IMG/VR virus record: IMGVR_UViG_3300047282_000135
Span: 1-37,613 of that record
From: a virus
Taxonomy: Duplodnaviria; Caudoviricetes
Direction: 5' to 3' (one strand)
DNA: 37,613 bases
Shown piece after piece: positions 5,873 to 22,438 of the stretch. The notes below the pieces were generated by a model. The model saw only the letters and a list, made by a program, of their open reading frames with translations. It had not been told where the DNA came from and did no database searches. Position numbers and translations under genes: made by a program. How positions within the stretch are numbered: the stretch's first letter is position 1; each line of letters begins with the position of its first letter.

Positions 5873-6301
5873 TCAGCTGATAGTCAAATTGGTGACTGAG
5901 GTGCGATAACGCACAAGATATTCGCAGCCAATCACGCCAGCCGGTTGATCAGCTTCCACCATCTCGAAGCTCACCGATTGCGGTTGCACATCAATGGCAT
6001 AACCGCCAAGGGTGAGATCGGCCATCATCTTGGCGTGCAGGCTTTCAATGATCGGATCAGCCGTCTGATCCGGCACCGTGCCGCGCACGATCACCGCGAT
6101 CCGTACCGTCAGGCTCCAATCCAGCGTGGGGAGGCTGGTGTTCTGCTGCGCTGTATCCGAGATCGGCTCAATCACAAGCGCCGGGCTTTCGCCGCGGCTC
6201 AGTGGTTCCACCCTGCTGCGATAGATCCGCGTGCTGACGCCGGTGGTTCCGGTGAGCGCTGTGCGAATCGCCGTCAGGACCTGTTCGCGCTTGGTGGTCA
6301 T
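5873..6301 (-). CDS. Tail terminator / tail completion protein
   Basis: 142 aa, MTTKREQVLTAI...RIYRSR...YLVRYRT, upstream of the tail tube gene. Confidence 0.75.
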   Translation of the reverse strand: MTTKREQVLTAIRTALTGTTGVSTRIYRSRVEPLSRGESPALVIEPISDTAQQNTSLPTLDWSLTVRIAVIVRGTVPDQTADPIIESLHAKMMADLTLGGYAIDVQPQSVSFEMVEADQPAGVIGCEYLVRYRTSVTNLTIS

Positions 6302-9866: not shown

Positions 9867-11446
9867 CAGTCCTCAGGCCCTTCGAGCGGATCCTCAAGAA
9901 CTGATTCCTCTTCGTATTCCTCTTCATCCATCGGCGGTTCCGTATCCTCAAACGCCGGCTGGCCGCCCATCGTCACAGCAGGCTGCGAACCACCGCCAGC
10001 ATTCACCTCACTGGGATCGGTATCGAGCACGATGCCCATCTCATCCAGCATGGCCAGCTCAGACTGACGCGCCACCAGCACGTCATCCAGATCGCCACCC
10101 TGCTCGCTGATCACCTGACCCAGCGTCTTAAAGCCACAGCGCACCGCATCCTTGTAGGCGTTCACTTCCTTCTGCGGATCCACCCATTCCCAGCTGCGTG
10201 GAATCCAACGGCTGGCCTTGTACCGATCCGGGTTTGTCTCATATGCCGGCAGGCTCAACTCACCGCTCAGCACCGCCATCTCGAGCCAGTTCTCGTAAAC
10301 CGTCTGGTGGAAGTTCTCGATGAAGAACCGCTGCAGCACCTTGTACGTGTCGCGCTCCTCAAGCAGGCTCAGCCGGCTGCTGCTGTAGTTGCTCTCTGAG
10401 AAGTTCTTACTGATGCTCTCGAAACTCACACCAACGCCAGCGGCCACAGCACGCAGCATCGAACGCGTGAATGGTTCCAGCTGGCCATCCGGTGCGTTCA
10501 GATCCGGCACCGTCACGCTTTCGCCCGGCGCCAGATACTTGAACACACCAGGCTGGAAGTCGCTCACGCGCTCGTTCTCATACACCTCATCGCCGATCAG
10601 CTCACCCTCAGGCGATTGGATGAAACCCATCAACGCACTGCTCGCCCTGGCCCGCACCACCTCGGCCTCCTCATAGCCCTGCAGCATGTGCAGCCGCATC
10701 AGCGCCGAGGCGAACCACGTCACGCCGCGCGTCTGCCCTGGCCGCTCCGGCAGGAACAGATGAATCACCTCATCAGCAGGCACGCGCACACGGCGCCCAT
10801 TGGTGCGTGGATTGCCCGCATACGTGTCGCCAGGGTGGTTGGCGTAGAAGTGGTACGCCTGCGGCCGCAGGTAGCCATCCACCTCGATGCCCATCCGCAC
10901 CGTGTTGCCTTCCTTGGCCTGCGGGATATCGTCGTCGATCAGATAGTCAGCCTCAAGCACCTGCAGCGCGAACGGCACGCGCGACCCACCGAATGGTTTG
11001 CGGATCATCCGCACGAACACCTCGCCGCTCTCCGCCAAGCTGCGGCACAGCAGCCGCTCCATATCGTGGAAGCCCAGCAGGCCGCTCACATCACAGCGGC
11101 TCTTGTGCATCCACCGCTCCCATGCCTCGTGGATCTGGCCGTTGATCGCCTCATCCAACCGGCCGCCACGCAGCATCCGCACCTGCGACTGGTGCTTGAT
11201 GCCGTGCCCAATCACATTATTCTGGATGCTCCGCAACGCTTGCCGCGCATAGTCGTTGTCACGGCACAGCTGACGCGCACGATTGCGCAGCGCCTTGAAG
11301 CTGCTCTTGATTTCGCTGTCGGCACTGGTGCCACTTGTCACCCAGTCAGCAGTGAGCCGGCTAACCCTTGCGCCTTGATACGCCCGCGCACGTGGCCGCA
11401 TCGGCTCGAATCCCATCGCCTTGAATAGCCGCGTCCGCAATCCCAT
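9866..11446 (-). CDS. Portal protein, lambda family
   Basis: LRNRARQL, RPGQTRG, NYSSSR and WVDPQKE motifs. Confidence 0.95.
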   Translation of the reverse strand: MGLRTRLFKAMGFEPMRPRARAYQGARVSRLTADWVTSGTSADSEIKSSFKALRNRARQLCRDNDYARQALRSIQNNVIGHGIKHQSQVRMLRGGRLDEAINGQIHEAWERWMHKSRCDVSGLLGFHDMERLLCRSLAESGEVFVRMIRKPFGGSRVPFALQVLEADYLIDDDIPQAKEGNTVRMGIEVDGYLRPQAYHFYANHPGDTYAGNPRTNGRRVRVPADEVIHLFLPERPGQTRGVTWFASALMRLHMLQGYEEAEVVRARASSALMGFIQSPEGELIGDEVYENERVSDFQPGVFKYLAPGESVTVPDLNAPDGQLEPFTRSMLRAVAAGVGVSFESISKNFSESNYSSSRLSLLEERDTYKVLQRFFIENFHQTVYENWLEMAVLSGELSLPAYETNPDRYKASRWIPRSWEWVDPQKEVNAYKDAVRCGFKTLGQVISEQGGDLDDVLVARQSELAMLDEMGIVLDTDPSEVNAGGGSQPAVTMGGQPAFEDTEPPMDEEEYEEESVLEDPLEGPED

Positions 11447-12012
11447 CAGAACCTCACGAATAGGTTGTGCGGATTGCCCAAGCCGTTGGCGATTAGGTCC
11501 GCCATCTGCTCACGCTTCACCTCAGCCTTCAGCTTACTTTCGCGTTCCATCAGCTCACTCAGATCCAGCTTGGTGAAGCTCCGGCTGCCGATTGTGTATT
11601 GCTTAGCGCCAGCGCTAACAATCGCGCGGATTGCAGCTTGCACTGCATCCAAATCAATCTGCGCTTGTGTGCGCCCATCAAACGCACCTGGCGAACCGGC
11701 ATAGGACAACGCCGCCTCAACAGTCAGCTGGCCGGCGCCCAGCGTCACCTTCTCACTGCCGGCCGTCGCAATCGCCTGCCAATACCACTGCCCAGCATCG
11801 AACCCAGCGCTCGTGCTAGCTGCGATGGTGAACTCCCAGCCAGTGCCATAGGCAGTGCCTACCACCGTGGCACCCTCACTTGCAGTGTTAGTGCGCAGGT
11901 AATACGTCAGCGTCCACGTGCCGCTGCTGATCACATTGCCCAGATTGTCAACGCCCGCAACGTCGCGCCACTTCACCGTGTCGCCTGCCCTGATTGTCGC
12001 GGGGATGTTCAC
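11446..12012 (-). CDS. Head completion protein (gpW-like C-terminus with an N-terminal beta domain)
   Basis: Probable GTG start at 12012, just after the terL stop. C-terminal AIRAIVSAGAKQYTIGSRSFTK is gpW-like. It lies between terL and portal. Confidence 0.75.
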   Translation of the reverse strand: MNIPATIRAGDTVKWRDVAGVDNLGNVISSGTWTLTYYLRTNTASEGATVVGTAYGTGWEFTIAASTSAGFDAGQWYWQAIATAGSEKVTLGAGQLTVEAALSYAGSPGAFDGRTQAQIDLDAVQAAIRAIVSAGAKQYTIGSRSFTKLDLSELMERESKLKAEVKREQMADLIANGLGNPHNLFVRF

Positions 12013-17626: not shown

Positions 17627-17986
17627 CTAGGAGTCGCAGGAGATTATTTGCGACGCATCTGCGACTGAGCGAGCAATTCCTGCGATGCCACCAGCGCCTG
17701 TCACAGCGGTGAGCCATGCGTGCTGCTCGGGGCGGATGCGGCCATGCTCTGTCTTCACCTCGATGCTGGTGAACACGGCGAGGCGCTGGCCCACCATGTC
17801 GGGGGTGATGGTGATGGTGCGCCAGCCGATCAGATCTGCAGAGCCACGTGCTAGGCCAAACTGCACGGGGCGGCCGGTGCGTGGATCTGGCAGGCTGCCG
17901 CAGTTGTTCCTAAACAGCCTCAGGCCTGGCTTTGTGCCCAAAGCCAGACGGATTTCCTGTTGGAGGTGCGTCTCACTAGCCGACAT
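17627..17986 (-). CDS. VRR-NUC domain nuclease
   Basis: SETHLQQEI, RNNCG, GSADLIG, IEVKT, RPEQ and GGIAGIARS. Confidence 0.9.
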   Translation of the reverse strand: MSASETHLQQEIRLALGTKPGLRLFRNNCGSLPDPRTGRPVQFGLARGSADLIGWRTITITPDMVGQRLAVFTSIEVKTEHGRIRPEQHAWLTAVTGAGGIAGIARSVADASQIISCDS

Positions 17987-18590
17987 TCATTGCCTTGAGG
18001 TGCTTACGCACAGTGTGGCGCGGCACACCTAACAGCTCGCTCCACTCCGTAACGGTCAGACGCTTGCCGTCGTGATCGATGTAGACGCAGCAACGGCGAT
18101 TATTTTGCTGCTCTTTCCTAGTTGCCCACCGGCAGTTGCTTGGTGCGTAGCCGTTGTCGTTATCGATGCGGTCAATCGTCAGACCTTCTGAATAGCCGCT
18201 GGTATTTGCCCATGCCTTGAAGTTGCGGTAGTCGCGCCACTCCGCGCATACATGAATACCTCTGCCGCCATAGTTTGCAAACGCACGATGGTTTGGGTTG
18301 TGGCACCTCCGGACCATCGAATCCCAGACGCGATAAAGCTTGCTGTGGCAGTCTGAGTGCTTGGTGTGTCGGCCACGAAGGCATCCACATGCCAGCTGCT
18401 TGCCGGTGCGTTCGTAAAGGCGGCTTTTTCTGATCACGGTCACGTTGCCGCAGTCGCACTGACAGCGAACCATTTGGTAGCGGTGGCCAGCCGAAGCGTC
18501 AGCCAAAACAGTCAGAAGACCGAAGCGCTGGCCGAGCAGCTCAGCAGGTATGGGATTTGGCACGGAGCAAGATAGGATAGCTGTTCCCAT
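17976..18590 (-). CDS. HNH homing-endonuclease-like protein
   Basis: GQRFGLLTV, CQCDCG, YGGRGI and TIDRIDNDNGYAPSNCRWAT. Confidence 0.88.
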   Translation of the reverse strand: MGTAILSCSVPNPIPAELLGQRFGLLTVLADASAGHRYQMVRCQCDCGNVTVIRKSRLYERTGKQLACGCLRGRHTKHSDCHSKLYRVWDSMVRRCHNPNHRAFANYGGRGIHVCAEWRDYRNFKAWANTSGYSEGLTIDRIDNDNGYAPSNCRWATRKEQQNNRRCCVYIDHDGKRLTVTEWSELLGVPRHTVRKHLKAMNVG

Positions 18591-18608: not shown

Positions 18609-19967
18609 TTATTGCCGGCCACGCGCATAGAGCACATGCTTAGCCCAGCCAACTGGGTTCTTCATTCCACGGGCTTGGCCGAGGTGGATCAGCTCTTGCA
18701 ATGTGCGCGCTTGGCCTTGCTCACGGCGTGCGGTGCGTTGCTCGGTGCGCTTCAGCTCCTGCAGTTCTCCTGCGATTTGACGGATGACGCGCGATTTAAT
18801 CGGCTGGCATTGTGCGCCACAGACCGGGCAAATCGGCGCCGGCTTGAACGCGGCGTAACACTCAGGGCATGTGCGCACTGACGGCGCTGCGGTGCCGCTG
18901 CGCTTCACTGCACCCTCGGCCAGGCTCCACTCGCGCGGATCATCTGGGAATCCATGGCGCGGCACGTTGCCAACGTGATCGAGGATGATTGCGGCATCCT
19001 TGCCTGGCGCTGGGCGCAGCACGCGGCCCACCTGCTGTAGGTAAAGGCCGAGCGATTGCGTGGGCCTGAGTAACACGGCGCAACTGGCGGCGGGCACATC
19101 GAAGCCCTCACTGACCACATCCACGGTCACGAGCACGCGAATCACGCCAGCGGCATATTGCGCCACTACTGCATCACGATCCTGCGTATCGCCCAGCAGC
19201 AGCGCTGCGCCAATCCCGGCTGTCTTAAATGCGTCGCACACTGAGACGGCATGGGCGACATTGCAGCAGAAGGCGATGGCCTGCTGTCCTGCTGCCAGGC
19301 GCTGATAATGCGCGATGGCATCGCCGGTCACTGTGGGTCGATCCATAGCGGCCGCGGCCTGATCGTTGGCGTAGTCGCCGGCTCGCGTGCGGATGCCATT
19401 GAGATCAGCCACTACTGGCGGCGCATAAATCCGTGCAGGCGATAGGAACCCGGCATTGATCAGATCTGCTACTGACGGGCCAAGCACCATGGCATCAAAG
19501 GCGCTGCGCAGTCCCTCGCCCGAGAGGCGGCATGGCGTGGCGGTAACACCCAGCCGGTAGGCATCGGGCCAATGATCGAGGACGCGCGCCCACTGCCCTG
19601 CAGTGGCGTGGTGGGCTTCATCAATAATGATCAGCCCCGGTTGCCAATCCATGCGGGCCAGCCTGCGGGCGAGCGTTTGCACGGATGCGATCTGTACCGG
19701 TGCATCTGTAGCAGGCACACCAGCGGCGATGATGCCGTGTTGAAGGCCGATCCATTGGAGCTTGCTGCTGGCCTGGTGGATCAGCTCACGGCGATGCACC
19801 AGGATCAGCACGCGGTTGCCTTTTGCTGCAGCGCTGGCGGCGATGGTGGAGAAGACGATGGTTTTGCCGCCGCCGGTCGGCAGCACTAGCAGCGGTGCGC
19901 GGGCGCCAGAGCGGTAGGCATCGCGCAGATCATCAATGGCGCGCTGCTGGTAGGGGCGGAGGTGCAT
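18609..19967 (-). CDS. Superfamily 2 helicase (RadD/YejH-like) with C-terminal Zn finger
   Basis: LRPYQ, PTGGGKT, DEAHH, TATP, EGFD, QQVGRVLR and CPEC/CPVC. The likely start is the ATG at 19967. Confidence 0.93.
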   Translation of the reverse strand: MHLRPYQQRAIDDLRDAYRSGARAPLLVLPTGGGKTIVFSTIAASAAAKGNRVLILVHRRELIHQASSKLQWIGLQHGIIAAGVPATDAPVQIASVQTLARRLARMDWQPGLIIIDEAHHATAGQWARVLDHWPDAYRLGVTATPCRLSGEGLRSAFDAMVLGPSVADLINAGFLSPARIYAPPVVADLNGIRTRAGDYANDQAAAAMDRPTVTGDAIAHYQRLAAGQQAIAFCCNVAHAVSVCDAFKTAGIGAALLLGDTQDRDAVVAQYAAGVIRVLVTVDVVSEGFDVPAASCAVLLRPTQSLGLYLQQVGRVLRPAPGKDAAIILDHVGNVPRHGFPDDPREWSLAEGAVKRSGTAAPSVRTCPECYAAFKPAPICPVCGAQCQPIKSRVIRQIAGELQELKRTEQRTARREQGQARTLQELIHLGQARGMKNPVGWAKHVLYARGRQ

Positions 19968-19970
19968 GGG

Positions 19971-20101
19971 GTTGCGGCCCCGGTTGCCCAGGGCCTCGGT
20001 GGTTGGCGGTGATGCGCGGCATAGTGCGATGCGGAGACTCACTGGGAATTGAGCTGCTCAGCGGGTTAACGCGGGGCGACGCAGAATGGCAGGCACAGCC
20101 C
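19971..20101 (-). ncRNA. Pentamer-array ncRNA unit C (putative guide RNA)
   Basis: 17 or more pentamers at 20007-20091 (plus-strand consensus M-R-N-N-G). On the minus strand they are followed by CGCCAACCACCGA, hairpin GGCCCTGG-GCAA-CCGGGGCC and GCAAC. Confidence 0.75.
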
Positions 20102-20131
20102 ACCAGATAGCCGATAGCTAAGTGTTGGGTT

Positions 20132-20240
20132 GTTGCGTGGCCCCGAAGGGCCACTCGGTGGTTGGCGACGAGCGGCACAGCGCTACTACGCAGATCAGGG
20201 CAAAGAGCAGCGCTAAACTGATATGCAGAGAGCCGAATGT
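20132..20240 (-). ncRNA. Pentamer-array ncRNA unit B (putative guide RNA)
   Basis: 14 pentamers at 20166-20235, followed on the minus strand by CGCCAACCACCGA, hairpin GTGGCCC-TTCG-GGGCCAC and GCAAC. Confidence 0.75.
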
Positions 20241-20270
20241 GGGCCTTACACCTAACGGATGCCCAGATCA

Positions 20271-20774
20271 TCAGCCCTCTAGTTGCGGTGGCTTTTTACC
20301 TGCACGTTTGAGCAATCTGAGCTGACGTTGTGCGCCTTGTGCTGATGCAGCGATGAATGAATGCACGTTGATGCGATTCTGATGTTCGCGGCGTGCAGCA
20401 CCTGTCAGCTTGCTGTCATCAATCGAGCTAACCAATCTGCTGGTAGCGCGTTGATGGCGGCGAAGCCCTTGAAATGCCTGATCATTCAGATAGGCAGATG
20501 CGTTCTCATCGGTCAGGACATTGATTACGCCTCCGACGGTGTTCATCACCAAGGGCGGGAGTTCCTTTTCGCGTCGATCACGCTCCAGCCAATCACGCAC
20601 CTGAAGCAGCACATACGGCAGTTTGGCTAGCTTGACTAACTCTTCATCACCGAGTTCATCAATCCAGCTTTGCAATTTATCTGGCTTGCGATTGACATAG
20701 TGCTCCCATGCCAGTTCTGCTGGGATTGTCTGGCCCTTGTAAAGAGCTGTTGAATCGATGGATGCGCTTTTCAT
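20271..20774 (-). CDS. Accessory protein coupled to the Cas7/RAMP-like gene (function unknown)
   Basis: 167 aa from the ATG at 20774, which overlaps the upstream stop (TGATG). It looks helical and has a basic C-terminus. Confidence 0.75.
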   Translation of the reverse strand: MKSASIDSTALYKGQTIPAELAWEHYVNRKPDKLQSWIDELGDEELVKLAKLPYVLLQVRDWLERDRREKELPPLVMNTVGGVINVLTDENASAYLNDQAFQGLRRHQRATSRLVSSIDDSKLTGAARREHQNRINVHSFIAASAQGAQRQLRLLKRAGKKPPQLEG

Positions 20775-21403
20775 CAGCCGATCTCCACTTCTTCTAGGTG
20801 GGTGACTTGAAAGCGACCGTGCATTGGTCGCCATGTACCAAGTCCCTCAGCAATACCGGCACGGTCAAGGATCTTGGCCAGCGTTTGCGGGTCAATGATC
20901 TCATCATTCACCAGCATGGAATACTTTGCTGCCCAATGCGGGATGCGAACACGAACGGCCATGGTGCCGCGTCCGGTTGGCGCGATTGATAGGAAGCGGG
21001 AGTCTTCATACATGACGGCAGCATCACGCGGTCCGTCGTAGATGAGTTCTGCGTCGCCTTCCACAACGATGGCGCGTTTGGTGTCTTTGCCCAGCTTCCA
21101 TGCGGTTGCACCATCGCGGATGCAGCGCTGCAAGTTTTGCGCGGGCAGGAATGGATCGCGGAAACCTTCAAAGCTGGAATCACCATCCAGTGATGTGCCA
21201 TAAGTGAAGGTGCCCTCTGTGCCCCAATAGCCAGAGAAGAGCCAATGCAAACGGCGCAGCGCGTGCTCGTTGCGGTTCTTCTTCATGGCGGTGAAGTATT
21301 TGATCGCTGCTGCATGTGGCCCGAGTGGGTCGACTGTGCAGGGATTGGACAGGATGACCGGGCGTGTGCCCTCAAGCGTTAGTTCAAAGCGGCGAAATGC
21401 CAT
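20774..21403 (-). CDS. Cas7/RAMP-like (Vipr-like) RNA-binding protein
   Basis: N-terminal strand FELTLEGTRPVI, central PFLPAQNLQRCI resembling the RAMP P-x-I-P-x-x-x-x-K helix, and C-terminal Gly-rich loop AGIAEGLGTWRPMHGRFQV. Flanked by repeat arrays. The fold is assigned from motifs only. Confidence 0.72.
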   Translation of the reverse strand: MAFRRFELTLEGTRPVILSNPCTVDPLGPHAAAIKYFTAMKKNRNEHALRRLHWLFSGYWGTEGTFTYGTSLDGDSSFEGFRDPFLPAQNLQRCIRDGATAWKLGKDTKRAIVVEGDAELIYDGPRDAAVMYEDSRFLSIAPTGRGTMAVRVRIPHWAAKYSMLVNDEIIDPQTLAKILDRAGIAEGLGTWRPMHGRFQVTHLEEVEIG

Positions 21404-21421
21404 GGATGTCCTCGTGGGTTA

Positions 21422-21545
21422 GTTGCAGGGCCTGAAGCCAGGCCCTTCTGTGGTGTGCGCAGAAATGCGTCAGACGGCAGGAAAAGGCGGCGAATGGCGC
21501 GGCAATGAGCAGCGCATCAGAGCTCCGAAAAGCAGTGACCCGCAA
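21422..21545 (-). ncRNA. Pentamer-array ncRNA unit A (putative guide RNA)
   Basis: 17 pentamers at 21458-21542, followed on the minus strand by CGCACACCACAGA, hairpin AGGGCCTG-GCTT-CAGGCCCT and GCAAC. Confidence 0.75.
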
Positions 21546-21601
21546 ACCATACCAGCATCCGGCCGCATCCGCTAGTATCTGCCTGAAACCCGCTGCAATG
21601 C

Positions 21602-22438
21602 ATGAAAAACACCGACTATCACGCGCATCCGGCAATCTCAAAGTCTCATCTGGATCTCATCGCAAGATCACCGCTGCACTACTGGGCCAGGTATCTGGAC
21701 CCCAAGCGTGTGGCGCCAGAGCCCACCGCAGCCATGCGGCTTGGCACTGCGCTGCATACGCATGTGTTGGAGCTGAGCCGATGGGATGAGGAGATCGCGG
21801 TGGCGCCAGTGTGTGATCGCCGCACCAAGGCCGGCAAAGATGCGTTTGCATCATTCGAGGCCAGCTCAGCTGGCAAGACCGTGATCACCGCCGACGATGC
21901 CGAGGTTGTGATGGCGATGGGCCGTAGCATCATGCGCCATCCCGGTGCGGCCATGCTGCTAGGGCTGCCAGGCAAGGCTGAGACCACGCACATGTGGACA
22001 GACGCCACTTATGGGGTCGACTGCAAGTGTCGTCCTGACTGGCTCACGGATGACGGCAGCATCATGGTTGATCTCAAAACCACCCGCGACGCCAGCCCGC
22101 GTGGTTTCAGGCGAAGCATTGGCGATTACCGCTACCACGTGCAAGCTGGCTGGTACATGCACGGGGTCCAAGCTGCCACCGGCAAGCGCCCCGATCAGTT
22201 CATCTTTATCTGCGTTGAAACGACAGCGCCTTACGCGGTTGCTGTGTACGCCGCCGATGCCGAGATGATCGAGCGCGGTTATGAACAGGCAATGTTTGAT
22301 TTGGGCAAGCTGGCCACCTGCCGCGCTGCTGACAGCTGGCCCAGCTATAGCGACCAGATCGAAACCATCAGCCTGCCGAGTTGGATGACGGCCGCCACCA
22401 GCCAGCAGCAGGCCACAACCGAAATCGAGACCTATTAA
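21602..22438 (+). CDS. RecE/exonuclease VIII-like PD-(D/E)XK nuclease
   Basis: YHAHPAISKSHLD, GTALHTHVLE, KCRPD, VDLKTT and YHVQAGWY. Confidence 0.9.
   Translation: MKNTDYHAHPAISKSHLDLIARSPLHYWARYLDPKRVAPEPTAAMRLGTALHTHVLELSRWDEEIAVAPVCDRRTKAGKDAFASFEASSAGKTVITADDAEVVMAMGRSIMRHPGAAMLLGLPGKAETTHMWTDATYGVDCKCRPDWLTDDGSIMVDLKTTRDASPRGFRRSIGDYRYHVQAGWYMHGVQAATGKRPDQFIFICVETTAPYAVAVYAADAEMIERGYEQAMFDLGKLATCRAADSWPSYSDQIETISLPSWMTAATSQQQATTEIETY

Follow-up and report, generated by a model that had tools for sequence, protein, structure and literature searches.

The window, that is, the whole stretch of DNA analyzed here, is the complete length of a virus record (37,613 nt; 37.6 kb) whose head and tail genes are lambda-like. 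For the terminase and exonuclease VIII, the nearest matches are those of Synechococcus phages S-CBS3 and S-CBS1 (51-52% and 49%), which makes a picocyanobacterial host likely. The virus is likely a cyanosiphovirus. A 1.6-kb block between the helicase and exonuclease VIII genes holds two protein-coding genes and three tracts of 5-nt units, A, B, and C, which we interpret as predicted guide RNAs (vrRNAs). In the reading direction of the cassette, the features are as follows.

21602..22438, plus strand: exonuclease VIII gene, bounding the cargo slot on the right
21546..21554, minus strand: extended -10-like motif seen just upstream of guide A, putative promoter
21458..21542, minus strand: repeat tract of predicted vrRNA A, 17 units of C-NN-Y-K; matches sigma-70 region 2 best
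21408..21457, minus strand: guide A 3' tail, which contains a GC-rich hairpin at about 21427-21446 and continues into the ribosome-binding region of vipr
20774..21403, minus strand: vipr gene, 209 aa, RAMP fold (from homology and a structure model)
20271..20777, minus strand: 168-aa vap-like accessory gene that overlaps the stop of vipr
20240..20266, minus strand: conserved hairpin interrupted by an internal loop; it follows the vap stop directly, precedes guide B, and may be a leader or processing element
20166..20235, minus strand: predicted vrRNA B repeat tract, 14 units
20132..20165, minus strand: 3' tail of guide B, hairpin at about 20135-20156
20092..20131, minus strand: conserved linker between guides, whose GGTGGG core can pair with downstream sequence; putative processing site or leader hairpin of the next guide
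20007..20091, minus strand: predicted vrRNA C repeat tract, 17 units
19968..20006, minus strand: 3' tail of guide C, hairpin at about 19976-19995, abutting the helicase start
18609..19967, minus strand: DEAD/ResIII helicase gene, bounding the cargo slot on the left

A consensus promoter scan found no full sigma-70 site, and the promoter and terminator scan gave nothing above shuffled sequences. An HNH endonuclease gene lies at 17976-18590, between the helicase and VRR-NUC genes.

The 209-aa protein is related to Vipr of VIPR, a phage system related to CRISPR that, according to the preprint text, silences DNA and was first described in 2026 (10.64898/2026.04.26.720920; 10.64898/2026.04.26.720927). 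It matched the Vipr of phage SUSP1 (PDB 36pp_D) with a phmmer E value of 2.1e-11 and a Felixounavirus Vipr over 183 columns in hhalign (probability 99.5%; E = 2.6e-23). The structure model (pLDDT of 91.6) resembled Csm3/Cmr RAMPs in Foldseek at TM scores of about 0.4 to 0.5. The cassette thus encodes what VIPR systems have, a stand-alone RAMP-fold Vipr with a G-loop and thumb. A Vipr-alignment scan of genomes found no relative, and an exonuclease scan returned only non-cyanobacterial bins. The second gene completes a minimal locus of vipr plus accessory vap, again as in VIPR systems; a homolog of this 168-aa protein stood next to vipr in 92 of the 95 loci with room downstream. SUSP1-like type II VIPR has a vap1-type DNA-binding accessory protein; the similarity of the window protein to four reference Vaps was weak in a profile comparison (E = 0.022; probability 2%) and gave E values of 0.09 to 0.21 with single Vaps. 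We found no Pfam or PHROG family for it, its Atlas clusters are unnamed, and a fold search returned generic helical-hairpin matches only.

The tracts had come to attention as a hidden 5-nt periodicity, and on recount the coordinates, pentamers, and counts of the original prediction were all exact: among 48 plus-strand pentamers, position 1 was C or A in 44, position 2 was a purine in 40, and position 5 was G in 37. Its description of a conserved triplet plus a free dinucleotide (NN) was correct in its own register, as was the statement that codon structure does not explain the pattern. The expected excess over shuffled controls was absent from the tracts taken singly and present when they were pooled. 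In a period-5 scan of the window, the single tracts had chi-square values of 36.7 (C), 44.3 (B), and 40.3 (A), inside a window-wide null of 200 codon-block shuffles (mean maximum of 39.4; 95th percentile of 45.3), and were the second, third, and joint fourth period-5 windows. Pooled in the phase anchored on the tails, they reached a chi-square value of 103.2, attained by none of 3,000 random triplets of stretches for each of which the best relative phase was allowed (null maximum of 52.0). The period-5 pattern is real.

We also scanned the window with a 5-mer matrix built only from the guides of relatives (Vipr identity of 57 to 95%). The three tracts ranked first to third, all on the minus strand, with scores of 21.4, 18.8, and 15.6; the next-best score in the window was 4.4, and the null maximum in 100 shuffles was 14.6. 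These training guides had been excised using a prior seeded on the window's own pattern; a prior-free chi-square scan of the relatives revealed the same CGC or YTC period-5 tracts. The highest period-5 chi-square value in the window (60.3; null maximum of 49.5) belongs to positions 11397-11466 at the start of the portal gene. We rejected this stretch as an array, as it fell outside the top matrix scores and in three relatives is ordinary coding sequence without array conservation; its signal is probably a short internal coding repeat.

On the minus strand, which is the vipr strand, the unit reads C-NN-Y-K, and each tract is followed by a short conserved motif and a GC hairpin. The phase of the tracts had been described as fixed relative to a motif shared by their ends; the strand and the role of the motif needed correction, as the minus strand is the functional one and the motif is the 3' tail of the guides. 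The same arrangement with different NN occurred in 97 of 104 related loci. Across these 97 loci, guide-type segments numbered 286 on the vipr strand near vipr versus 3 elsewhere; a further 100 calls on the opposite strand near vipr are probably mirror signals of the same tracts. Among near-clade tails, 99 of 127 folded with z scores below -2, and all three window tails are hairpins.

From the related loci we compiled 195 unique guides, 139 of the near clade (1,789 units) and 56 of a marine clade. Information content in the near-clade guides was 0.01 and 0.04 bits at the NN positions versus 1.57, 0.75, and 0.81 bits in the scaffold, bearing out the per-position contrast that had been predicted. 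The scaffold across the 104 loci was CGC or YTC and rarely GGY, with NN free. Near-clade junctions were CGC (836), CTC (209), TGC (157), and GGC (23), so that the GGY scaffold of type II VIPR is not the rule here. The marine clade stands at 43 to 47% identity, and its guides had mostly CTC and TTC. The marine loci (L082-L103), with their YTC/NN scaffold, differ in their tail and have as many as six guides per array; a freshwater subclade (L018/L019/L054-L060) also has a YTC scaffold. The scaffold in the window is looser than that of its clade (position 1 at 1.03 bits), and some of its units may be decaying.

The linker between guides was present in 52 unique copies in 35 loci. Its GGTGGG core could pair 6/6 downstream in all 52 and upstream in 16, a count made without a null. 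The post-vap hairpin motif was matched in 24 near-clade loci. The linker and this hairpin separate the guides and are likely marks of processing. VIPR types I and V have hammerhead ribozymes interspersed in their arrays; here, an Rfam search of nine sources gave no family at the gathering score, and no hammerhead core was seen in the linkers by eye.

The expectation that NN should vary among related phages while the scaffold stays held over all near-clade guides and failed for orthologous ones, which kept NN at least as well as the scaffold. Guide B and its ortholog in L024 differed at 3 of 28 NN versus 8 of 42 scaffold positions, and guide A and its ortholog in L001 differed at 5 of 28 versus 10 of 42. 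NN conservation in relatives, which had been named as grounds for rejecting the pattern, is therefore too strict a test, and such conservation is what is expected when both orthologs aim at one target. Two of the three NN changes in guide B are Leu-synonymous first-position swaps on the opposite strand, and those in guide A include Arg- and Leu-synonymous swaps on the same strand. These swaps point to protein-coding targets in which the wobble base is skipped.

The departure from GGY has a counterpart in the protein. In the SUSP1 cryo-EM structure, as the preprint text describes it, H17 and D177 read G1 of GGY, R138 and W178 read G2, and Y3 is read in a pocket that includes R179 (10.64898/2026.04.26.720920; 10.64898/2026.04.26.720927; PDB 36pp). 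The window Vipr keeps R151, W191, and R192 at the places of R138, W178, and R179. At the G1-reading places of SUSP1-like type II (GGY) Viprs stand S19 (H17) and T190 (D177) instead. Among the 104 related loci, the D177 place was T and the R138 equivalent was kept in all 102 loci covering the respective site (for D177, the G-loop); the H17 place, covered in 97, held S (76), G (12), D (8), or A (1) and in no case H. In the four reference phage Viprs, the H17 place holds H and the D177 place holds D or E; three of these loci have GGY tracts visible in their DNA, and for the fourth a translated repeat implies them. A GGY-type Vipr family of cyanophages likewise has E at the D177 place. The change of scaffold accompanies the replacement of both G1-reading residues; judged from the alignments, this is a correlation that may go back to a single evolutionary event.

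The cassette occupies a variable slot (19968-21601). Among 80 relatives fetched by their exonuclease, 63 had both flanks, and the slot was empty (44 to 122 nt) in 16 of these; in the remainder it was mostly filled by different cargo of 1.2 to 2.9 kb. Window-type vipr was found in 2 of the 80. The slot being empty or otherwise filled in most relatives, the cassette is mobile cargo. In the relatives (L264-L343), the slot is a cargo hotspot, with a helicase-methylase fusion in L274, an HNH gene in L266, a PAPS-reductase/DUF3440 gene and an ectoine-synthase-like/ParB gene in L283, and a GGY VIPR in L334.

The L334 cargo is a different Vipr family in the same slot (E = 0.0034 to 36pp), with E at the D177 place and GGY tracts. 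This family, with GGY-type arrays, was located at L334:3698-5190, L239:18130-18711, L242:1927-2511, L248:18805-19389, and L251:8287-8871. Four phages, G002-G005, have the family with GGY-type tracts (about 0.8 to 1.2 kb or more) alongside a CGC-type Vipr. Such coexistence of two VIPR codes suggests that there is no cross-loading between them. We tentatively propose, as a reading on the doubtful side of even, that cyanophages run orthogonal VIPR codes. The changes H17 to S and D177 to T would switch the scaffold from GGY to YGC/YTC and keep GGY guides from loading or hijacking the system. The CGC system would silence rival temperate cyanophages at their integrase and own sigma factor, and possibly host sigma genes too. 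The window itself had no homolog of the second Vipr family, of the clade's target integrases, or of the sigma factor. As a separate observation on GGY loci, the annotated start of the post-vipr gene in Gordonia phage Trine (L352:2085-2888) runs through a GGY tract; this CDS is probably overextended across the vrRNA.

We searched for targets of the guides under a 1-nt skip rule, in which the NN pairs read DNA and skip every third (wobble) base, with other skips and shuffles as controls. On 0.6 Mb of related-phage DNA, matches of at least 0.85 numbered 0, 2, 3, and 2 for skips 0 to 3, and on 0.9 Mb, guides with an excess of at least 2 numbered 0, 5, 3, and 2, with no separation in either case. 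Two guides (L057 and L060) matched one tyrosine integrase, after which integrase-bearing loci were added to the search DNA. On the resulting 2.15 Mb, the numbers of the 195 guides exceeding other skips and shuffles by at least 2 were 0, 5, 0, and 2, and four of the five skip-1 standouts matched one tyrosine-integrase family, two of the four being new. On the integrase-bearing loci, 5 of 191 guides stood out for skip 1 and none for other skips. At the protein level, against 120 integrases, 5 of the 139 near-clade guides outscored every one of 100 shuffles, the matches lying at three conserved sites; on two control sets, the numbers were 0 and 1 of 139. The target integrase family occurs in Cyanobium and Synechococcus records.

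The wobble skip was thus seen for five to six guides of relatives, and the great majority of the 195 guides had no target; in the window, the only comparable match is a subthreshold one of guide A. The skip rule and integrase or sigma-factor targets are supported for the relatives only, from sequence matches. Some candidates were set aside as likely chance: an L078 guide on the window's minor tail gene (position 6012, ORF 5873-6301; 22/26 at a 1-nt skip), which stood out on 0.9 Mb and not on 2.15 Mb, and weak matches of L010 to L243 (18/20), of L097 to L347 (23/32), of L041 to a sigma protein outside the motif (22/26), and of the L047 guide on the Vap set (17/22).

No window guide had a target at 80% or more. 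Exact 8-unit seed scans of IMG/VR gave 37 matches for guide A (best, 24/34), 81 for guide B (best, 21/28), and 13 for guide C (best, 23/34), none above chance; with one exact seed per scan, this is a weak search whose blanks are no proof of absence. Full-guide scans of the 0.6, 0.9, and 2.15 Mb of related-phage DNA and the integrase, Vipr, and Vap protein sets likewise gave the window guides nothing above chance. For guides B and C, no target appeared in the seed scans, the related-phage DNA, the protein sets, or five sigma-bearing contigs. Self-targeting in the window (best, 21/34, 17/28, and 22/34) was no better than with other skips.

Guide A nevertheless gave a lead. It resembles sigma-70 region 2, a motif that was noticed first and scored afterwards. 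Among 150 sigma proteins its best score was 27/34, where 500 shuffles reached 25 at most; 108 of the 150 carry the motif, and the in-register median of the family was 24/34, a level expected about 0.5 times per million residues. Its L001 ortholog reached 22/28 and an unrelated guide of L047 reached 20/22 on sigma proteins. In DNA, the best match of guide A was 25/34 (74%, below the 80% used in the VIPR paper) in a phage sigma gene. The seed of this search combined the guide with a sigma motif, a post hoc choice, and the score of the match only ties the best of 20 shuffles on sigma-bearing contigs. Among 11 sigma loci, the best DNA match of the L047 guide was the same L394/L403 phage gene that holds guide A's joint-best site (20/22, 57 nt upstream of the guide A site, at a 1-nt skip only). 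The contig concerned (L403:3664-9111) looks temperate: besides its own sigma-70 gene, it carries a serine recombinase and an unassigned 239-aa ORF. The L403 serine recombinase is also weakly matched (18/22) by two clade guides that are nearly identical. That guide A aims at a sigma-70-type gene, more likely that of a temperate phage than that of the host, we regard as close to an even call, falling just short of it; host sigma factors would be expected to score similarly to the phage gene.

Taken together, we consider it highly probable that the tracts are guide RNAs of a VIPR cassette with a YGC/YTC scaffold, predicted to act by gapped RNA-DNA pairing and so to silence genes of competing cyanobacterial phages. 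By extension from the SUSP1 work, the three vrRNAs would be transcribed and then cut at the linkers, one Vipr subunit would bind each 5-nt unit and bury the triplet, and the NN pairs would read DNA while skipping the wobble base, so that transcription would be blocked without cutting. A cassette of the same kind could instead use guide A against the host's own sigma-70 (SigA or group 2) and redirect host transcription. The motif is common to primary-type sigma factors, and 39 of the 108 motif-bearing proteins scored at least 25/34 in register; the other targets in the clade, however, are integrases, and the two sigma-directed guides have their best DNA matches in a phage gene next to a serine recombinase. 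We think this use of guide A unlikely.

It is also quite improbable that the system is decaying or inactive, with intact ORFs and guides that have drifted from their targets, as the looser scaffold and the lack of a match of at least 80% for A, B, or C might suggest. Both ORFs and all tails are intact, and guide B shares 25 of 28 NN with L024, and the 8 of 42 scaffold bases that differ stay inside the permitted set; the kept NN, together with the two synonymous Leu swaps among its three changes, implies ongoing selection. Single tracts, which lie within the window-wide null and are overlapped by short ORFs, might be taken for DNA elements such as protein-binding repeats or origin iterons, or for coding sequence that is periodic by chance or low in complexity. 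The pooled significance, the confinement of guide segments to the vipr strand and its neighborhood, the Vipr homology, and the free NN with codon-phased matches elsewhere all argue against this, and we hold it to be very improbable.

On the VIPR reading, the clade is a natural experiment on the scaffold code, in which the triplet changes together with the two G1-reading residues. VIPR has been proposed as the ancestor of class 1 CRISPR effectors, and its structures and assays have so far all concerned GGY guides. If the code is orthogonal, the system would offer a second, non-cross-talking programmable repressor of about 23 kDa, and escape from the guide hijacking reported for satellites would be one reason for code diversification. 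The data suggest that phage-versus-phage RNA-guided silencing extends to freshwater and marine picocyanobacteria, with sigma-factor genes among its targets. If the two-code reading is true, sigma factors would be a target class not described in the available VIPR text; "sigma factor" has no occurrence in that of the three VIPR preprints, and a literature search found no report of cyanophage VIPR or of sigma targets.

Type II VIPR is known, in the preprint text, from Escherichia phage SUSP1 and a Pseudomonas fulva prophage (10.64898/2026.04.26.720920; 10.64898/2026.04.26.720927). As far as SUSP1 is described there, the window cassette shares with it the order vipr then vap, with one guide upstream and an array downstream, pentamer tracts of 14 to 17 units with free NN and a structured 3' tail, the G-loop and thumb residues R138, W178, and R179, and, in the targets of relatives, the 1-nt skip on the codon wobble. 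VIPR tracts in general have about 9 to 16 units, with a triplet that follows GGY or a related consensus; the triplet here is of the latter kind. The window cassette differs from SUSP1 in its CGC/TGC/CTC scaffold with H17 and D177 replaced, its simple-hairpin tail and conserved linkers between guides, a Vap that is at best remotely related, and a likely picocyanobacterial host. The SUSP1 VIPR is reported to silence the excision recombinase of a satellite (10.64898/2026.10.15.759431); guides of our clade similarly converge on conserved codons of a recombinase gene, although the targets here are Cyanobium/Synechococcus tyrosine integrases and, tentatively, sigma-70 genes. The window Vipr shares the RAMP fold with G-loop of class 1 CRISPR proteins (Csm3, Cmr, Cas7). 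Unlike in class 1 CRISPR, the guide is gapped, and Pfam and PHROG scans of the window (22 and 21 ORFs) recognized no CRISPR array or other cas gene.

Non-GGY arrays have been described in the preprint text as alternative repeats NNNGG, YNNNG, and NNNNG (10.64898/2026.04.26.720920) and as 21 non-GGY clusters, e.g., GAC/NN, CAC/NN, WGT/NN, and TGH/NN (10.64898/2026.10.21.760802). Like these, our clade has a non-GGY triplet beside a Vipr fold, and YNNNG covers its G-ending units (29 of 48 in the window), whereas the T-ending YTC units fit none of the three patterns. The main text of the latter preprint does not name CGC, YGC, or CTC, and figures S17 and S10 of the preprints and the data files may include the clade; the available text of the two preprints (10.64898/2026.04.26.720920; 10.64898/2026.10.21.760802) gives no residue-to-scaffold link or targets for non-GGY variants. 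The window cassette is a member of the VIPR family in the broad sense, outside type II as defined by GGY. Since non-GGY VIPRs are already known from the preprints, what this clade adds is the link between residues and scaffold, the coexistence of two codes, and the sigma-factor lead.
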